From NCBI GenBank assembly GCA_037200925.1, contig JBBCGO010000001.1:9552-73551 (forward strand): 64,000 bases of DNA, read 5' to 3'. The position numbers were made by a program, and so were the translations under genes. Positions 3,406 through 58,048 of this stretch are shown here, one piece after another. How positions within the stretch are numbered: position 1 is the stretch's first letter; each line of letters starts with the position of its first letter. The notes under the pieces are model-generated. The model was not told the DNA's origin and did no database searches. It worked only from the letters and a program-made list of their open reading frames with translations. The stretch comes from Candidatus Doudnabacteria bacterium. GTDB lineage: Bacteria > Patescibacteriota > Doudnabacteria > UBA920 > O2-02-FULL-48-8.

Positions 3406-3963
3406 ATGGCAACGACTGAATTCAAAATTTCTCAAACTGCGATCCCGGGCCTTTTCGAAATAGACATAACTTTGCTGGAAGATGAGCGGGGATATTTTCA
3501 GGAAAAATTCCAGAAAGAAAAACTGGTGGCTTTGGGATTTCCAAAAGATTTTATGCCGGTGCAGCAGAATATATCGTACAACCGGCAAGTTGGCGTAACC
3601 AGAGGATTCCACGCAGAGCCGTGGGAAAAATATTTAGAAGTCATCTCCGGAAGCGTATATGCTGTATTTTTGGATTTGCGCGAAGGGGATAATTTCGGCA
3701 AAAAACAGGCAATCGTGATAGATCAAAACAAGGCTGTTTTTGTGCCTTTAGGAGTTGCCAATTCCTTCCAGACCCTGGAAGCCGATACTTACTATTCTTA
3801 TCTGGTCAATGCGCATTGGTCATCGCAAAAAACCTCGGAATATAAATTTGTGAATTTAGGCGACCCGGACCTGGCGGTTGAGTGGCCGATCAGTCTTGCC
3901 AAGGCGATCATTTCCGACAAAGACCGCAATCATCCGATGTTGAAGGATATTAAGCCTTTTTAA
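3406..3963 (+). CDS. rfbC: dTDP-4-dehydrorhamnose 3,5-epimerase
   Basis: RmlC-like cupin sequence (TAIPGLFEIDITLLEDERGYFQE..). It lies immediately downstream of rfbB. Confidence 0.85.
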   Translation: MATTEFKISQTAIPGLFEIDITLLEDERGYFQEKFQKEKLVALGFPKDFMPVQQNISYNRQVGVTRGFHAEPWEKYLEVISGSVYAVFLDLREGDNFGKKQAIVIDQNKAVFVPLGVANSFQTLEADTYYSYLVNAHWSSQKTSEYKFVNLGDPDLAVEWPISLAKAIISDKDRNHPMLKDIKPF

Positions 3964-3966
3964 TTT

Positions 3967-4806
3967 ATGAAAGTATTGATCCTCGGAGCCAAAGGGAGTT
4001 TGGGGCAGACTTTTGCCGATGTTTATAAAGATCAGGAAGTGATCGCTTGGGATAAGAATGAACTTGATATCACCGACGAAGATGCAGTCGCTGAAAAAAT
4101 AACCGGACTAATGCCGGATATCGTCATTAATTGCGCGGCGTACAATTCGGTCGATAAAGCGGAAGACGAAAGAGAAACGGCTGATCTGATCAACGGGTAT
4201 GCAGTTGGATTTATTGCCAAAGCCTGTGATTCCGCCGGCGCAACTCTTGTTCATTATTCCACCGGACAAATATTCGACGGCAGCAAATCAGAGGGCTATA
4301 ATGAAGATGATCAGCCCGGTCCCGTTAATTTCTACGGCAAGTCTAAACTTTTGGGAGAGATGCAGCTGCAGGAGTACGCGGAAAATTTTTATCTGATACG
4401 GACCTGTTGGCTATATGGCCGGCCGGCCGAAGGAAAAAAAAGTTTTACCGATATAATGCTGGAATTGGCAACCGGGAACACCGTCATCAATGCGACCAAA
4501 GACGAATTCGGCAAACCGACTTATGTCAAAGACCTGGCCGAAGCTACCCGAGCGCTGGTTGATGAGAAAAAGCCTTTTGGAATTTATCATCTGACAAATT
4601 CTGGGATAGCCAGCAGGTTTGATTGGGCAAATGAGATTTTTACCATCAGAAAAAATAAAGCATTGCTTGAGGCGGTTAATGCCGGTTTTTTCCCAAGAAA
4701 AGCCAAGCGGCCCAAATATGAAGTTTTGAACAATACAAAATTCATCCAGCTGAGGCCTTGGACGGAGGCTTTGAAAGAATATTTAAGTTCTACCAATGAG
4801 AATTAA
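3967..4806 (+). CDS. rfbD: dTDP-4-dehydrorhamnose reductase
   Basis: MKVLILGAKGSLGQ Rossmann N-terminus with an RmlD-like body. It follows rfbC in the rml operon. Confidence 0.8.
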   Translation: MKVLILGAKGSLGQTFADVYKDQEVIAWDKNELDITDEDAVAEKITGLMPDIVINCAAYNSVDKAEDERETADLINGYAVGFIAKACDSAGATLVHYSTGQIFDGSKSEGYNEDDQPGPVNFYGKSKLLGEMQLQEYAENFYLIRTCWLYGRPAEGKKSFTDIMLELATGNTVINATKDEFGKPTYVKDLAEATRALVDEKKPFGIYHLTNSGIASRFDWANEIFTIRKNKALLEAVNAGFFPRKAKRPKYEVLNNTKFIQLRPWTEALKEYLSSTNEN

Positions 4807-35678: not shown

Positions 35679-36002
35679 TCAGGTCACCGATCCGATTGCT
35701 TTCGAGCGTGTCAGGGCAGATACTGCTTCTGCGCGCATCGCCAGGAGCTGGTCAGTGATAGTGACTACAATATTTTCAACGGCATCATGCAGAAGTTGGT
35801 CTGACCAATAGCGATTGATCACATCGTCAATGAATTCGATGCGCTGGTCATAAAACAACCAGTTCTTTGCTTGGCGGATGTGGTCTTCGCCGACTCGCTT
35901 GACGACGTATTCGAGAAGCGAAGATTGGACTGCTATCATCGCGATCGGATTCTGAAGCCGTGTGTTCATGCTCAAGCCTCCGTGAATTTGTAAGATTGTC
36001 AA
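35679..36002 (-). CDS. hypothetical small protein (opposite strand, higher GC)
   Basis: 107-aa ORF with no recognisable motif. The start is uncertain. Confidence 0.3.
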   Translation of the reverse strand: MTILQIHGGLSMNTRLQNPIAMIAVQSSLLEYVVKRVGEDHIRQAKNWLFYDQRIEFIDDVINRYWSDQLLHDAVENIVVTITDQLLAMRAEAVSALTRSKAIGSVT

Positions 36003-36040: not shown

Positions 36041-36895
36041 ATGGATCTGTCGGTAATAATCCTTAATTACAACACTAAAGACTTTCTCCAAAAATGCCTG
36101 GGGTCGGTTTTTGCGTCGCTAACGAATTCTCAATTTGAAGTGATCGTTCCCGACAACGGTTCAATCGACGGCAGCATAGAAATGGTCAAGAATAATTTTC
36201 CGCAAGTTAAATTGATTGAAAATAATGCCAATCTGGGGTTTTCTGCCGGAAATAACGTCGCTCTGCGGCAAGCTTTGGGACGATATTGTTTGTTGCTTAA
36301 TTCAGACACGGAGGTTAAGCCCGACACTCTCGATCTATCTATAAAATACATGGACGCTCATCAAGATGTAGGTGTAATGGGCTGCAAGGTGCTTTTGCCT
36401 GATGGAAAATTGCATGAAGCATCCCGGCGCAGATTCCCAAATCCGGCCAACGCATTCCTAAGGCTTTTCGGTTTCCGTAAATTCAGTGGTTACAATTATC
36501 AAAACATTCCGGTTGACCGGGAAATGGAGGTGGATTCCGTGGTCGGCGCATATCTTTTGATCCGAAAATCGGTGATGGACAAGATCGGACTGCTTGATGA
36601 GGAATTTTTTATGTACGGCGAAGACCTGGACTGGTGCTGGCGCGTGAAGGAAGCCGGATTTAAAGTCGTGTACTATCCGGGGGCAGAGATCACTCATTTC
36701 CTGTACGGTTCATCCAAAGCTGTGGCATTCCGCTCGGTGAGGTGGGCGCATACGGCGATGAAGATCTTTTATCTCAAGCATTATGCTGCTAAAAATAATT
36801 GGTTGTTCAACCAGTTCGTGTATTTGGGAATTAGCACTCGGATGTATCTGGTGCTAGTAGTTAACCTTTTTAGAAAAAATAAAACAGTTCATTGA
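36041..36895 (+). CDS. family 2 glycosyltransferase
   Basis: LSVIILNYN, DNGS and NSDTEV GT2 motifs. Confidence 0.8.
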   Translation: MDLSVIILNYNTKDFLQKCLGSVFASLTNSQFEVIVPDNGSIDGSIEMVKNNFPQVKLIENNANLGFSAGNNVALRQALGRYCLLLNSDTEVKPDTLDLSIKYMDAHQDVGVMGCKVLLPDGKLHEASRRRFPNPANAFLRLFGFRKFSGYNYQNIPVDREMEVDSVVGAYLLIRKSVMDKIGLLDEEFFMYGEDLDWCWRVKEAGFKVVYYPGAEITHFLYGSSKAVAFRSVRWAHTAMKIFYLKHYAAKNNWLFNQFVYLGISTRMYLVLVVNLFRKNKTVH

Positions 36896-37467
36896 GCTAA
36901 AAAAAGAGTGGACGATCAGTGATGTCCACTTGTTGCGTTCCCGGGACCCCAGACCTTCAGATAAGACTGCGATTGCTCGCCGGGCGCTTTTTCTGCGCCT
37001 GTTTGTTGTCGTTATCTTTATGTTGGGCTATCCCAGCTGCTCTTTCTGTTTCTGCCTTCCCAGCAGTGATTGACCTACAGGGTGTTTCCGGTTGTTCCTT
37101 GGGGTCGTGGCGTGCGCCACCCAGTACGCTAGATTTTCTTCGTGCTGATGATTCGGGCGTGCGTTTTGCGGTGCAGGATCCGGTCCAGCATCTGCATCGT
37201 CCTCCACAGGAAGATCTTGCATGTGGCGTTCCCGTTTGTGGCGGTCAGGCCTGTCTGCGCGGTCCGGAGTACGGCCGCGGACGGCGGCAGGGGTGCGGAC
37301 TTGCTCTACGATGCCTCAAACATCCTCCTGTCTTGGCTTCAACGTCTCCGCACCTAACTCAGACGTGAGCTTAGAAAAAGTATAGTCTTCAATTAAATTA
37401 CTGTCAAAAATTATCAACAACTATCAATTATTTTACTTTATGTCCGAATTTGATTATAATTAATCTT

Positions 37468-38697
37468 ATGAATAATAAGTATTTTGAAACAAATTTTTAC
37501 CCGAAACACGTCAGGCTCTATGCAATTGTATTGGTTTTGGCGGTGGCATTTTACGGGTTGGGATACGGAGTCGGAGCCGGACGGATCCAAGTTCAATCGG
37601 GCAAGCTTAGTATCAGTCAGGGGAATGTTCCGAACAATTCCGCTGATTATTCGTTGCTTTGGAATGCTCTGGACCTGCTGAATTCAAAATACGTAGACCG
37701 GCCCCTGGACCAGCAAAAATTGATGTACGGGGCCGTCTCGGGCATGGTTGCCGCCGCAGGCGATCCATATACGACATTTTTCGATCCGGATGACGCCAAG
37801 GCTTTCACTGAACAGCTTTCCGGCACATTCAGCGGCATTGGGGCGGAAGTAGGCGCGAAAGACAACCAGATCGTTATTATTGCGCCGCTTCCCGATACTC
37901 CGGCCTCGCGCGCCGGGCTTATGGCGGATGACATAATTTTGGACATTGACGATATCAGCACGCAGGGCATGACCGTGGATCAGGCTGTGACGAAGATCCG
38001 CGGGCAAGCGGGTACCAGCGTCAAGCTGACGATCCTGCATAAAGGGAAGACCAGTCCTACGCAGATCTCTATCATGCGAGCGCAGATCCAGGTCAAGAGC
38101 GTGAAGCTGGATACGAAAACCGTCAGCGGCAAAAAGATCGCGGTCATCAAAATAAATGAGTTTGGGGATGACACCAAAGGCCTGCTGGACCAGGCGATCG
38201 ATTCTGTTACTTCCGGCAACTATTCCGGCGTCGTATTGGACCTGCGGAACAACCCGGGCGGATATTTGGAAACCGCCGTCAGCACGATCTCTGATTGGAT
38301 CGATGCCAACCAGCTAGCCTTGAAAGAAATAAGCTACGGCAATTCCGAAAAAGATTACACTACTTCGGGTGTGCCCAGGATGAAAGGAATGAAAACCGTG
38401 GTTTTGGTCAATGGCGGCTCAGCGTCAGCTTCGGAAATTGTGGCGGGAGCTCTGCAGGATTATAAAGTAGCGACCTTGGTCGGAGAAAAAACATTCGGCA
38501 AAGGGTCGGTGCAGGAATTGCAGGAATTGCCGGGGAATTCGGAAATTAAGATCACGGTGGCCAAGTGGTATACGCCCAAGGGCCGCGGCATCAATAAGGT
38601 CGGGCTTGATCCCGACATAAACGTAGTCTTGACCCCGGCTGACGCCACGAACAACAAGGATCCTCAGATGGATAAGGCGCTTCAATTGTTAAAATGA
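37468..38697 (+). CDS. ctpA: carboxyl-terminal processing protease (S41, CtpA/Prc-like) with PDZ domain
   Basis: PDZ region (GIGAEVG..IIAPLPDTPASRAGL) and S41 catalytic region (VLVNGGSASASEIVAGAL..KTFGKGSVQ). Predicted leaderless: TATAAT at 37455-37460, 7 nt before the ATG. Confidence 0.85.
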   Translation: MNNKYFETNFYPKHVRLYAIVLVLAVAFYGLGYGVGAGRIQVQSGKLSISQGNVPNNSADYSLLWNALDLLNSKYVDRPLDQQKLMYGAVSGMVAAAGDPYTTFFDPDDAKAFTEQLSGTFSGIGAEVGAKDNQIVIIAPLPDTPASRAGLMADDIILDIDDISTQGMTVDQAVTKIRGQAGTSVKLTILHKGKTSPTQISIMRAQIQVKSVKLDTKTVSGKKIAVIKINEFGDDTKGLLDQAIDSVTSGNYSGVVLDLRNNPGGYLETAVSTISDWIDANQLALKEISYGNSEKDYTTSGVPRMKGMKTVVLVNGGSASASEIVAGALQDYKVATLVGEKTFGKGSVQELQELPGNSEIKITVAKWYTPKGRGINKVGLDPDINVVLTPADATNNKDPQMDKALQLLK

Positions 38698-38822: not shown

Positions 38823-40553
38823 ATGAATTCCAAAGAACTGCGGCAAAAATATCTGAAATTTTTTGAAGAAAAAGGACATAAAGTCATCCCTTCAGCCTCG
38901 CTTGTGCCCGCCAATGATCCGACGGTTTTGTTTACGACCGCCGGCATGCACCCGCTGGTCCCTTTTTTATTGGGTGAAAAACATCCGATCGGCACCCGTT
39001 TAGTCAATTACCAGAAATGTTTGCGCACGGATGATATTGATGAGGTCGGCGATGATACCCATAATACTTTTTTTGAAATGCTCGGCAACTGGTCTTTGGG
39101 CGACTATTGGAAAGACGATGCGATCAAATGGTCTTATGAGTTTTTGACGGATAAAAAATGGCTGGGCATCGAAAAAGAAAAACTGGCTGTTACGGTCTTT
39201 GAAGGTGATACTGACGCTGCCAAAGATGAGGAATCAATAAATATTTGGAAGTCTTTGGGTTTTGGCGATGACCGGATCAAACCCTTGGGGAAAAAAGATA
39301 ACTGGTGGGGGCCTGCCGGGGCCACAGGGCCGTGCGGTCCTGACACGGAAATGTTTTACTGGACCGGTGAAGATGCGCCGCCGGCAAGATTTGACCCATC
39401 CGACAAGCGCTGGGTTGAGATCTGGAATAATGTTTTCATGCAGTACAATAAAACCCAAGAAGGCAAATTTGAGCCTTTAAAACAGCGCAACGTGGACACT
39501 GGAATGGGCATAGAAAGGACCACTGCGGCGCTGGAAGGTAAAACGAGCGCTTATGATACCGAATTATTTGCGCCGATCATCCAAAGGATCAGATTGCTTG
39601 CCGACAAACAAGATCAGAGATCAGAACGGATCATTGCCGACCACATGCGTGCGTCAGTTTTTTTGCTTGCGGATGGAGTGACCCCGTCCAATAAAGACAG
39701 AGGATACATTTTGCGCCGACTCATCCGCAGGGGAGTGACTTTCGGGCAAAAATTGGGGATCGACCATGATTTTACGGCTGAGATCGCAGAGATCATTGTG
39801 CTTGAATATGAATCAGTTTATCCGGAACTTAAGAACTCAAGCATAGAAGCCGAGCTGAAGAAAGAAGAGATGAAATTCCGGGGAACTCTGGGCAGAGGCC
39901 TTAAACTTTTGGAAGGAAAATCGCATATCACCGGCAAAGAAGCTTTTGATCTGTTCCAAACTTACGGTTTTCCGTATGAATTGATCGAAGAATTCGTCAC
40001 TGTCACAAACCCTGAGGAATTTGAGAAAGAGTTTGAACAACATCAGGGGCTTTCACGCACTTCGTCTGCCGGGCAATTTAAAGGCGGCCTTTCATCGCAT
40101 TCCGATAAAGTCGTGCGGCTGCATACGGCCACTCATCTTATGAATGCAGCGCTTCGCAAAGTTCTGGGCGCCAACGTTTGGCAGAAGGGGAGCAATATAA
40201 CCGAAGAGCGCACGCGGTTTGATTTTACGCATGACAGAAAAATGACCGATGAGGAAAAAAAGCAGGTTGAAGAATTGGTTAACGATTGGATCACGCGCGA
40301 TCTGTCGGTAAAAAAAGAAATATTGCCGCTTGAGGAAGCAAGGAAACTTGGGGCGATCGGCGTGTTTGGCGAGAAATATCCGGAAACAGTTTCTGTTTAC
40401 ACTATTTTTGACCCCGAAACCTCCGAAGTTGTCTCCAGAGAATTTTGCGGGGGCCCCCACGTGGAGCATACAGGCGTCATCGGCAAATTTAAGATCCAGA
40501 AAGAGGAAGCTGTATCCGCGGGCGTAAGGAGAATTAAAGCGATTGTTATATGA
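38823..40553 (+). CDS. alaS: alanine--tRNA ligase, short form (catalytic plus editing domains, no C-Ala domain)
   Basis: N-terminal class II AlaRS motifs (FTTAGMHPLVPF, LGNWSLGDYW) and editing-domain HxxxH..CGG.H (HTATHL, FCGGPHV). The protein ends at 576 aa. Predicted leaderless (TATAAT, 6 nt, ATG). Confidence 0.85.
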   Translation: MNSKELRQKYLKFFEEKGHKVIPSASLVPANDPTVLFTTAGMHPLVPFLLGEKHPIGTRLVNYQKCLRTDDIDEVGDDTHNTFFEMLGNWSLGDYWKDDAIKWSYEFLTDKKWLGIEKEKLAVTVFEGDTDAAKDEESINIWKSLGFGDDRIKPLGKKDNWWGPAGATGPCGPDTEMFYWTGEDAPPARFDPSDKRWVEIWNNVFMQYNKTQEGKFEPLKQRNVDTGMGIERTTAALEGKTSAYDTELFAPIIQRIRLLADKQDQRSERIIADHMRASVFLLADGVTPSNKDRGYILRRLIRRGVTFGQKLGIDHDFTAEIAEIIVLEYESVYPELKNSSIEAELKKEEMKFRGTLGRGLKLLEGKSHITGKEAFDLFQTYGFPYELIEEFVTVTNPEEFEKEFEQHQGLSRTSSAGQFKGGLSSHSDKVVRLHTATHLMNAALRKVLGANVWQKGSNITEERTRFDFTHDRKMTDEEKKQVEELVNDWITRDLSVKKEILPLEEARKLGAIGVFGEKYPETVSVYTIFDPETSEVVSREFCGGPHVEHTGVIGKFKIQKEEAVSAGVRRIKAIVI

Positions 40554-43551: not shown

Positions 43552-43732
43552 CGTTTCTTTTTAGGAAAGTGGCACCGCCACAAATCCCGAGTTGCCGTTA
43601 TTGCAACTTAAAATTATACTCCTTTTTTGTGGTTTTGTCAATAGTTCCGGGTAAATGGTGGCTAATCTAAGCTTTTTTTAACCTCACCCCCGGCCCCTCT
43701 CCTCGCGAGGAGAGGGGAGTTCTAAATTGAAG

Positions 43733-43761
43733 TTGACAGCAAATCGATTTCTTGTTAATAT
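43733..43761 (+). promoter_or_regulatory. sigma70 promoter (TTGACA, 17 nt, TAATAT) of the infA-rpmJ-rpsM-rpsK-rpsD-rpoA-rplQ operon, about 200-nt leader
   Basis: Hexamers read directly. It is preceded by a GC palindrome, CCCCTCTCCTCGCGAGGAGAGGGG. Confidence 0.55.
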
Positions 43762-43967
43762 TTCGAAGTATTTTACCCCGTTAGAGATTGATAATTTAAT
43801 GACGGTGTAAAGTTTTTGTCTAGTTATTTATAAAGTAAACCATCGTTTTATATCAGCTTTGTTGATCTCTAACGGGGTTTAGCAATCAATTTACACATAT
43901 TCCTACCGGAGCTCAAGATTTAGGGACGCAAGGCCCACAAAAAAATACAATAGAACTCGAGGGCAAA

Positions 43968-44150
43968 GTGGTAGAATCTTTACCCAATGCTGTTTTTCGT
44001 GTGCAGATCGAGTCCGGACAGATAATTTTGGCTCATATTGCGGGAAAATTACGGGTCAATAAGATCCGTGTCCTGCCGGGAGATAAAGTGATTATTGAGG
44101 TTACCCCGTATGATTTAACGCGAGGCAGAGTTATTAGAAGGTTAAGGTAA
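43968..44150 (+). CDS. infA: translation initiation factor IF-1
   Basis: ..[55 protein letters not shown] is an S1-like IF1 signature. The ORF track starts at a GTG, and the reading frame stays open upstream (..IELEGK..), so the true start may be non-canonical. Confidence 0.85.
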
Positions 44151-44280
44151 TTAATTTACGAAAAAATTGAGTCGCAGTCCCGATTTATCGGGACGAGAAC
44201 AATTTTTTCGAGAGGAGTAATAAGTCGACCGGAGCGCATTTTACGAAGTAAAATCGCGAAGGTTCGACCAATTACGACGA
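44151..44280 (+). promoter_or_regulatory. structured intercistronic element, copy 1 (infA stop to rpmJ ATG)
   Basis: It shares conserved blocks (TTAATTACGAAAAAATTGAGTCGCAG, GAGAACAATTTTTTCGAGAGGAG, GACCGnAGCG, GCGAAG, GACGAATG) with the element at 44829-44957. The two hairpins between the blocks differ in sequence but keep their pairing. Confidence 0.55.
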
Positions 44281-44394
44281 ATGAAAGTCCGTGCAAGTGT
44301 AAAACCTATGTGCAAGAAATGCAAGATAGTCCGCAGACGGGGCGTAATTTTTGTTATTTGTGAAATTCCTAAACATAAGCAAAGACAAGGTTAA
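44281..44394 (+). CDS. rpmJ: 50S ribosomal protein L36
   Basis: 37-aa [37 protein letters not shown], with the zinc-ribbon CxxC..C..H pattern. It is too short for the ORF track. Confidence 0.85.
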
Positions 44395-44432
44395 CGGGAA
44401 AATTTCTAATTTCTAATGTCTAATTCCTAAAT

Positions 44433-57670: not shown

Positions 57671-58048
57671 GCTTCTTAAGTAAGCGCGGCAGTCGCTCTC
57701 ATCGCAAGATGAGGGAGGAAAGTCCGAACACGTTGGTTGGATGGAATTCTCATGAGTTCATGCAACCTTAGGTAGCGGGTAATTCCCGTCGTGAGAGATC
57801 AAGAGATGCGAACAGTGACGCCTGATCAGAAATGAAAAGGCTCCTAAGCGATTAGGATGAAGCCAATGGTAACATTGGATTGAAACGGCTAAATTCTTAC
57901 CTAATAGTGCAATATCAAATAGGCTCTTAAATGAGCGGGTTGATAGCTTGAGGTGCGCAGCAATGCGTGTCCCAGATAGATGATTGCCTCTGCTTTGGGT
58001 AAAACCAAGGCAACAGACAGAATTCGGCTTACAACTTGCTTAGGAAGC
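57671..58048 (+). ncRNA. rnpB: RNase P RNA (bacterial type)
   Basis: Conserved P4 strands GAGGAAAGTCCGAACAC and ACAGACAGAATTCGGCTTA. A 5'/3' P1 pairing (GCTTCTTAAG/CTTAGGAAGC) is present. Length about 378 nt with its own promoter and terminator. Confidence 0.8.

Follow-up and report, generated by a model that had tools for sequence, protein, structure and literature searches.

What occupies the long, GC-rich gap between a GT2 glycosyltransferase gene and the S41/ctp gene in the genome of this Candidatus Doudnabacteria bacterium? In the 64-kb stretch of DNA analyzed here (the window), the GT2 gene ends at position 36895 on the plus strand. The ctp ORF starts either at 37450 (TTG) or at 37468 (ATG, the start chosen in the GenBank gene call), leaving a gap of 554 to 572 nt (36896-37449, or to 37467 with the ATG). 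The median intergenic gap in the window is ~63 nt, and the GT2-ctp gap is among its three longest. GC makes up 58.2% of its core (36940-37360), compared with 48.0% of the window, and A accounts for only 13% of the plus strand there. An earlier note made from the DNA letters had singled out this gap for its length and GC richness, and both observations are borne out. The other long gaps of the window are AT-rich (29 to 43% GC). Furthermore, the other two longest gaps are accounted for, one by RNase P RNA and one by infA and rpmJ. The RNase P RNA scores 101.5 bits in Rfam against a gathering score of 100 and explains the 555-nt gap at that place. The longest apparent gap (43552-44432) is not empty, as it contains infA (43968-44150) and rpmJ (44281-44394) upstream of rpsM.

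Most likely, the gap is taken up by a distinct minus-strand gene that is equipped with a promoter and a terminator, is restricted to a lineage, and encodes an RNA of no present class or micro-ORFs. The minus-strand promoter TTGACA-17-TATACT (37407-37379) matches the consensus at 11 of 12 positions, and a hairpin followed by nine U residues (36929-36899) constitutes a predicted intrinsic terminator. Together, these two signals define a predicted minus-strand transcript of ~474 nt running from 37372 to 36899, convergent with GT2 and divergent from ctp (Table 1). Read on the plus strand, the same terminator can also end the GT2 transcript and would then be bidirectional. Both hairpins that the earlier note described are present (36908-36929 and 36981-37001), but it had placed them at the 5′ end, whereas they lie at the 3′ end of the minus-strand unit. 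Just upstream of the −35 hexamer, a (T/C)TGATAG box occurs in 8 of the 11 tabulated units and in L114, and it is missing in relatives that lack the unit; it is possibly an operator or a UP element.

Table 1. Positions in the window of the features discussed in the text
Feature	Position	Strand	Remarks
Predicted transcript, ~474 nt, 57% GC, 15% U	36899..37372	−	Bounded by promoter and terminator; positional homologues
TTGATAG-N3-TTGATAA box	37411..37427	−	Immediately upstream of −35; conserved
−35 hexamer TTGACA	37402..37407	−	Exact TTGACA in 12/12 homologous units
−10 hexamer TATACT	37379..37384	−	17-nt spacer; predicted start is the A of 37372
5′-proximal hairpin ACGUCU(N13)AGACGU	37342..37366	−	Predicted
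GGAGG box 1, ACAGGAGGAUG	37324..37328	−	45 nt past start; predicted unpaired
ORF1, UUG start 4 nt past box 1, 24 codons, MRHRRASPHPCRRPRPYSGPRRQA	37245..37319	−	Candidate micropeptide
GC-rich hairpin GCCGUC-CGCGG-CCG-UAC(UCCG)G..., UNCG-type loop	37249..37285	−	Overlaps ORF1; predicted
CUUCC-UGU-GGAGG, box 2 paired with upstream pyrimidine tract	37201..37213	−	Predicted probability unpaired 0.14
ORF2, AUG 3 nt past box 2 (second AUG 9 nt), 22 codons, MQMLDRILHRKTHARIISTKKI	37129..37197	−	
3′ domain, predicted three-way junction	36940..37036	−	Stem AGAUAA/UUAUCU around hairpins GGCG..CGCC and GCGA..UCGC
Intrinsic terminator, hairpin and U9	36899..36929	−	GUGGACAUCACUGAUCGUCCAC then UCUUUUUUU; almost identical in L083
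ctp promoter TTTACT-17-TATAAT	37432..37460	+	Back to back with the minus-strand promoter
149-aa ORF	36919..37368	+	Annotated as a gene in GCA_037975565.1; antisense to the RNA; judged spurious
RNase P RNA, bacterial class A	57677..58046	+	Rfam match

The comparison with relatives extends these signals beyond a single genome. We collected relatives as contigs carrying ctp homologues of 66 to 80% identity and through a metagenome scan, and the order GT2-gap-ctp-AlaRS is conserved among these Doudnabacteria. A long gap of 340 to 940 nt with a GC-enriched unit of 250 to 850 nt was present in 12 distinct lineages (the window, L083, L086, L090, L092, L096, L103, L107, L108, L109, L113, and L114). 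Each of the 12 carries, on the minus strand, a TTGACA promoter and a 3′ hairpin with a U-rich tail, although the hairpin of the other homologues differs from the one that the window and L083 have in common. All units but one have a 17-nt spacer (the exception, L090, has 18 nt), and all but one have the −10 hexamer TATA(A/C)T (TACTAT in L096). In the five closely related copies, an A lies ~7 nt past the −10 hexamer.

At least five relatives (L084, L091, L093, L094, and L112) have a short gap of 25 to 70 nt instead. The gap of L085 measures 176 nt and holds unrelated sequence; in it, positions 3825-4000 (equal to L088 2310-2485) contain a self-complementary stretch of ~95 nt, detected as an nhmmer self-match on the opposite strand (E 5e-4). 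In L111, two real minus-strand genes of 183 and 78 aa (461-1641) fill the slot. Both of these have TTGACA-17/18-TATAxT, AAGGAGG, and ATG; the 183-aa product is membrane-anchored, and neither gene has a Pfam match. The GT2-ctp slot is a variable accessory locus. The unit is restricted to a Doudnabacteria subclade and is dispensable there, since it is missing from several close relatives (L084, L112, and L091). In a genome-collection scan based on AlaRS, none of 80 loci carried the element (best AlaRS match 60% identical), and the only Doudnabacteria locus among the 80, L014, had a short gap.

Two observations concern the neighboring genes. The AlaRS of the window (38823-40553, plus strand) is a short form of 576 aa, and its nearest GTDB species representatives, 51 to 60% identical, belong to DPANN archaea, Lentisphaeria, Treponema, and other CPR, a distribution that looks like horizontal transfer. 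Besides, a small minus-strand ORF (35679-36002, 96 to 107 aa) without a Pfam match lies between two GT2 genes, and relatives have a minus-strand gene of 94 to 168 aa at the same place.

We observed no match of the gap to any known RNA family. Rfam 15 at the gathering threshold found only the RNase P RNA in the whole 64-kb window and nothing in the gap. At E ≤ 10 on both strands of 36700-37600, only two chance snoRNA matches appeared (E 1.6 and 3.1). ARAGORN found neither tRNA nor tmRNA in the 64-kb window, and the transcript has no visible GGUUCGA T-loop or CCA end, which argues against a tmRNA. None of the other candidate families (6S, SRP, RNase P, OLE, GOLLD, ROOL, HEARO, raiA, riboswitches, and introns) scored at threshold in the gap. 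The earlier note had found no tmRNA, SRP RNA, or 6S RNA by eye, and the Rfam/Infernal and ARAGORN searches agree with it. A diversity-generating retroelement (DGR) template repeat, a CRISPR array, and a TIGR array were rejected likewise, as the 64-kb window holds no second copy of the element and no arrays, and the neighbors are GT2 and ctp. A type I toxin-antitoxin system was also set aside. The ORF peptides are strongly basic and hydrophilic, and the unit contains no plus-strand promoter, because the ctp promoter was the sole promoter-like plus-strand site in a scan of 36700-37600. A literature search on ncRNAs of Doudnabacteria or CPR returned nothing relevant.

The element is under purifying selection in comparison with its closest relative, L083, whose ctp is 80% identical. 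The two copies are 75% identical over aligned columns, whereas identity is as low as 42% at fourfold-degenerate sites in the genes on either side. Constraint acts on the entire RNA and not on the ORFs alone. Beyond L083, only blocks of the element can be aligned, and the 3′ domains of the subgroups are unlike each other. The GC content of the transcript exceeds that of its locus in all 11 homologues, by 4 to 13 points. Minimum free energy z-scores on the transcript strand averaged about −2.8 and were below those of the antisense strand in 9 of 11 homologues. Specifically, the minus strand of the window copy gave z = −1.7 to −2.8 in two runs against shuffled controls, whereas the plus-strand fold of the region (z = −0.9) was not better than shuffles. 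A conserved structure of the transcript is suggested by these folding models. The structure conservation index was 0.49 on both strands, and is therefore uninformative for the strand call; few base pairs covary.

A further indication of the strand comes from the Shine-Dalgarno (SD)-like motif GGAGG. It occurs 23 times on the transcript strand of 11 transcripts, against 3.9 ± 1.9 expected, an approximately sixfold enrichment that none of 1000 dinucleotide shuffles reached. The longer GGAGGUG occurs 7 times against 0.2 expected. In contrast, the complement CCUCC is not enriched (7 vs 6.9). Therefore, the functional strand is the minus strand, and this holds independently of the promoter. AGGAGG is present in 10 of the 11 transcripts, and L114 has AAGGAGG at about +9. 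The first GGRGG box of the 11 transcripts lies between +12 and +47, and 11 of the 12 units carry AGGAGG or GGAGGUG close to the 5′ end.

The predicted transcript combines a 5′ part with mRNA-like signals and a structured remainder. A 5′ hairpin can be drawn in every homologue, but these hairpins are mutually unalignable, and the predicted accessibility of box 1 is inconsistent among homologues. The core of ORF1, RRPRPY(F/S)xPR, is common to the window, L083, L107, and L113, and is missing in L109. The UNCG-type hairpin that overlaps ORF1 shows one compensatory change from G-C to A-U in comparison with L083, and its loop reads UCCG in the window and UUCG in L113. Directly 5′ of the second GGAGG (box 2, 37205-37201, minus strand), a pyrimidine tract recurs in L083 (UUUCC), L107 (UCUCC), L109 (CCUC), and L113 (CUUCC). 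The window, L083, L107, and L109 all have ORF2, which L113 lacks. Within ORF2 lies the most conserved block, CUGCACCGCAAAACGCACGC (37157-37176), and the best-conserved block across relatives reads AUGCAGAUGC...CUGCACCGCAA(A/G)ACGCACGC. The 3′ domain takes in the second hairpin of the earlier note (36981-37001). In an alifold of this domain with L083, the pairs were mostly invariant with few compensatory changes; its three-way junction is common to the window and L083 and was not found in the L107/L109 subgroup.

Does this unit encode a protein? No homologue was found for any ORF of the gap on either strand, and Pfam and NCBIfam searches were negative, which also speaks against a peptide resembling ribosomal protein L34 or L36. 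A 64-aa ORF at 37031-37222 (minus strand) is present in a public protein library (P0122); apart from itself, it matches only two tandem-repeat proteins, artifacts whose scores are inflated by the repeats. The earlier note had regarded the region as non-coding. This is probably right insofar as no ordinary protein is encoded; that the unit is purely non-coding is less certain, because the 5′ part is mRNA-like, with Shine-Dalgarno boxes and tiny ORFs. The indications that arginine-rich micropeptides may be translated from ORF1 and ORF2 are suggestive but weak.

This leads to the strongest alternative, that the unit is a small mRNA in which arginine-rich micropeptides (ORF1 of ~17 to 40 aa, ORF2 of 14 to 22 aa) are the functional products and the remainder is a long 3′ UTR. 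The succession of promoter, leader of ~10 to 50 nt, and AAGGAGG resembles that of the real genes of L111, and a UUG or AUH codon lies 4 to 6 nt past box 1 in 9 of the 12 units. However, only 2 of 12 units have a canonical start codon at a suitable distance after box 1; 7 further ones have an AUH codon. In L090, the stop of ORF1 overlaps the start of ORF2 (AUGA). The ORF1 sequences of L103 and L114 are only 51% identical in nucleotides, with no blastn match, but have the same residue at 13 of 30 codons, a number that 36 of 10,000 column shuffles reach, and their differences distribute over the three codon positions as 12/11/21. Similarly, the changes in the RRPRPY and LHRKTHA cores are mostly at third positions, with one 3-nt indel. 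Against these points, a profile of the L103/L114 ORF1 peptide found no further member. Within the close group, the similarity is as good in other frames and on the opposite strand, pN/pS is 0.40 to 0.56, and second positions vary as much as third positions. Moreover, the relative frame of ORF1 and ORF2 is not constant between genomes, and such a protein is absent among 5.8 billion sequences. The small mRNA also leaves the selection on the 3′ domain unexplained. We consider this explanation unlikely.

Could the unit instead be the decaying remnant of a gene for a small accessory protein, a pseudogene whose promoter, SD sequence, and terminator are still in place? The variability of the slot would suit such a history, with two genes in L111, an empty slot in L084, L112, and L091, and unrelated sequence in L085. 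Furthermore, ORF1 and ORF2 are fused into a single frame of 61 codons in L107, and relative to this frame, L083 has an in-frame TGA, the window has changed frame, and L109 and L113 have deletions. An open frame of 61 codons is, however, not improbable in a U-poor sequence (about 0.09 by our estimate), and the fused 61-aa ORF of L107 had no match in 5.8 billion sequences. All 12 lineages have retained the exact −35 hexamer, the spacing, and a terminator, and the element is conserved far above neutral sites in comparison with L083. In addition, decay would lower the GC content, but the GC content of the unit is raised while other intergenic DNA has 29 to 43% GC. A pseudogene of the L111 proteins in particular was rejected, as no similarity to these or to any known protein was seen. 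We therefore regard a decaying gene as quite unlikely.

A more speculative proposal starts from the enriched boxes themselves. A stable "SD-box RNA", which would be a new class in CPR, could capture 30S subunits or the 16S anti-SD sequence through conserved high-affinity GGAGG(UG) boxes and, in a minimal genome, act as a ribosome-titrating or translation-tuning RNA, maybe together with Arg/Pro-rich micropeptides that target the ribosome. The ORF1 core HRRPRPYFxPR may resemble the cores with which PR-39, Bac7, and oncocin target the ribosome. We give this proposal a small chance.

A plus-strand feature, namely a gene for the 149-aa protein, a GT2 3′ UTR, or a ctp leader or riboswitch, appears very improbable. 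The assembly GCA_037975565.1 lists the 149-aa ORF among its genes, and four terminator-like hairpins lie on the plus strand against 1.1 expected. However, a search of 5.8 billion proteins recovered nothing but this ORF itself, Pfam gave no match, and no ORF is called at its place even in L083; these results support the earlier suspicion that it is spurious. Other plus-strand ORF calls antisense to the unit are found in L107 (1875-2168, 97 aa) and L109 (1882-2187, 101 aa), and together with the call in the window (148/149 aa) they are probably spurious annotations, as they have no homologues. Nor is the GC-rich core a ctp leader, because the ctp promoter lies downstream of the core and is retained in relatives without the unit. 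The −10 hexamer of this promoter (TATAAT) ends at 37460, so near the ATG at 37468 that the ctp mRNA is probably leaderless or nearly so, and the layout is the same in L083 and L084. Furthermore, it is the minus strand that carries the promoter, the strong U-tract, and the excess of SD boxes, and the plus-strand fold is unremarkable. Finally, a fragment of foreign high-GC DNA or the remnant of a mobile element, which the earlier note had also considered, is barely credible: the GC content is ~10 points above that of the genome and the distribution among relatives is patchy, but in many lineages the element is found at this one syntenic place with the promoter type and SD signals of the host clade, and it is free of repeats and integrase, has no second copy in the window, and matched nothing in 72,556 plasmids, 50,697 phages, or the 80 loci that include other phyla.

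We favor, with moderate confidence, the reading of the unit as a putative lineage-specific regulatory or dual-function RNA gene. The other suggestion of the earlier note, a structured ncRNA of an unrecognized class, comes nearer to this reading in that the unit is independent, selected, and without an Rfam match; it has to be amended in that the strand is opposite to that of the flanking genes, the first hairpin is a terminator, and the conservation of structure is only moderate. For the putative RNA gene, we envision the following course. The sigma-70-type promoter behind the conserved TGATAG box would begin transcription at ~37372. The transcript of ~474 nt would open with a hairpin and expose a strong Shine-Dalgarno box 45 nt in. 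Next, a GC-rich hairpin with a UNCG cap would be followed by the second SD box, hidden in a paired stretch, then by a short block of conserved sequence and the structured 3′ domain. The hairpin and U9 terminator, facing the end of GT2, would then stop transcription. The product would be the RNA itself, possibly along with one or two arginine-rich micropeptides of 20 to 24 aa (ORF1 and ORF2), and no ordinary protein would be made. The tiny ORFs may be translated from UUG, AUH, or AUG codons. We infer that the RNA could be shielded from 5′ decay by its 5′ hairpin together with 30S subunits sitting on the SD boxes, as in the STAB-SD of cry3A. A U-poor, GC-rich sequence with hairpins at both ends and SD boxes fits an RNA that would be built for stability.

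If expressed, the unit would add a new lineage-specific RNA or micropeptide gene to a genome of ~1 Mb, in which each retained stretch of 500 nt is likely to matter. It matches none of the 4227 families of Rfam, and the source assembly mis-annotates the gap as a hypothetical protein. Spurious antisense ORFs are called at this slot in three assemblies, which calls for caution in annotation.

How does the unit compare with known systems? Dual-function sRNAs, such as S. aureus RNAIII/hld, B. subtilis SR1/SR1P, and E. coli SgrS/SgrT, offer one parallel. Like these, the unit is predicted from its sequence to be a transcript of a few hundred nucleotides with its own promoter and terminator, in which the 5′ part carries an SD followed by a very short ORF and the long rest is structured. 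Unlike these, its ORFs are poorly conserved and mostly without canonical starts, and the Rfam searches gave no sequence or structural homology. Sponge RNAs offer another parallel: the CsrB/RsmZ family titrates a protein, and 6S RNA titrates RNA polymerase. The unit similarly appears to be an abundant, stable RNA with repeated short G-rich motifs, which evolves fast in sequence while its architecture is kept. In contrast to CsrB/Rsm, its GGA is only mildly enriched (86 vs 69 ± 6; 7 of 1000 shuffles) and not regularly placed in hairpin loops, the boxes being paired as often as looped, and the CsrB, Rsm, and 6S models of Rfam had no match in the gap.

In the STAB-SD of the Bacillus thuringiensis cry3A mRNA, a bound 30S subunit blocks RNase J1, so that an orphan SD acts as a 5′ stabilizer (PMC4113751). 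The unit likewise has a strong SD-like box near the 5′ end, presumably complementary to the 3′ end of 16S rRNA, together with a predicted 5′ hairpin, and most of its copies have no canonical start codon after the box. Where STAB-SD belongs to the leader of a long protein-coding mRNA, however, the unit has 1 to 4 boxes per RNA and no downstream gene. By these analogies, the unit would work most like the dual-function sRNAs (RNAIII, SR1, and SgrS) and the STAB-SD leaders. As it fits no known family, it is best filed as a putative stand-alone bacterial small RNA or micro-ORF gene.
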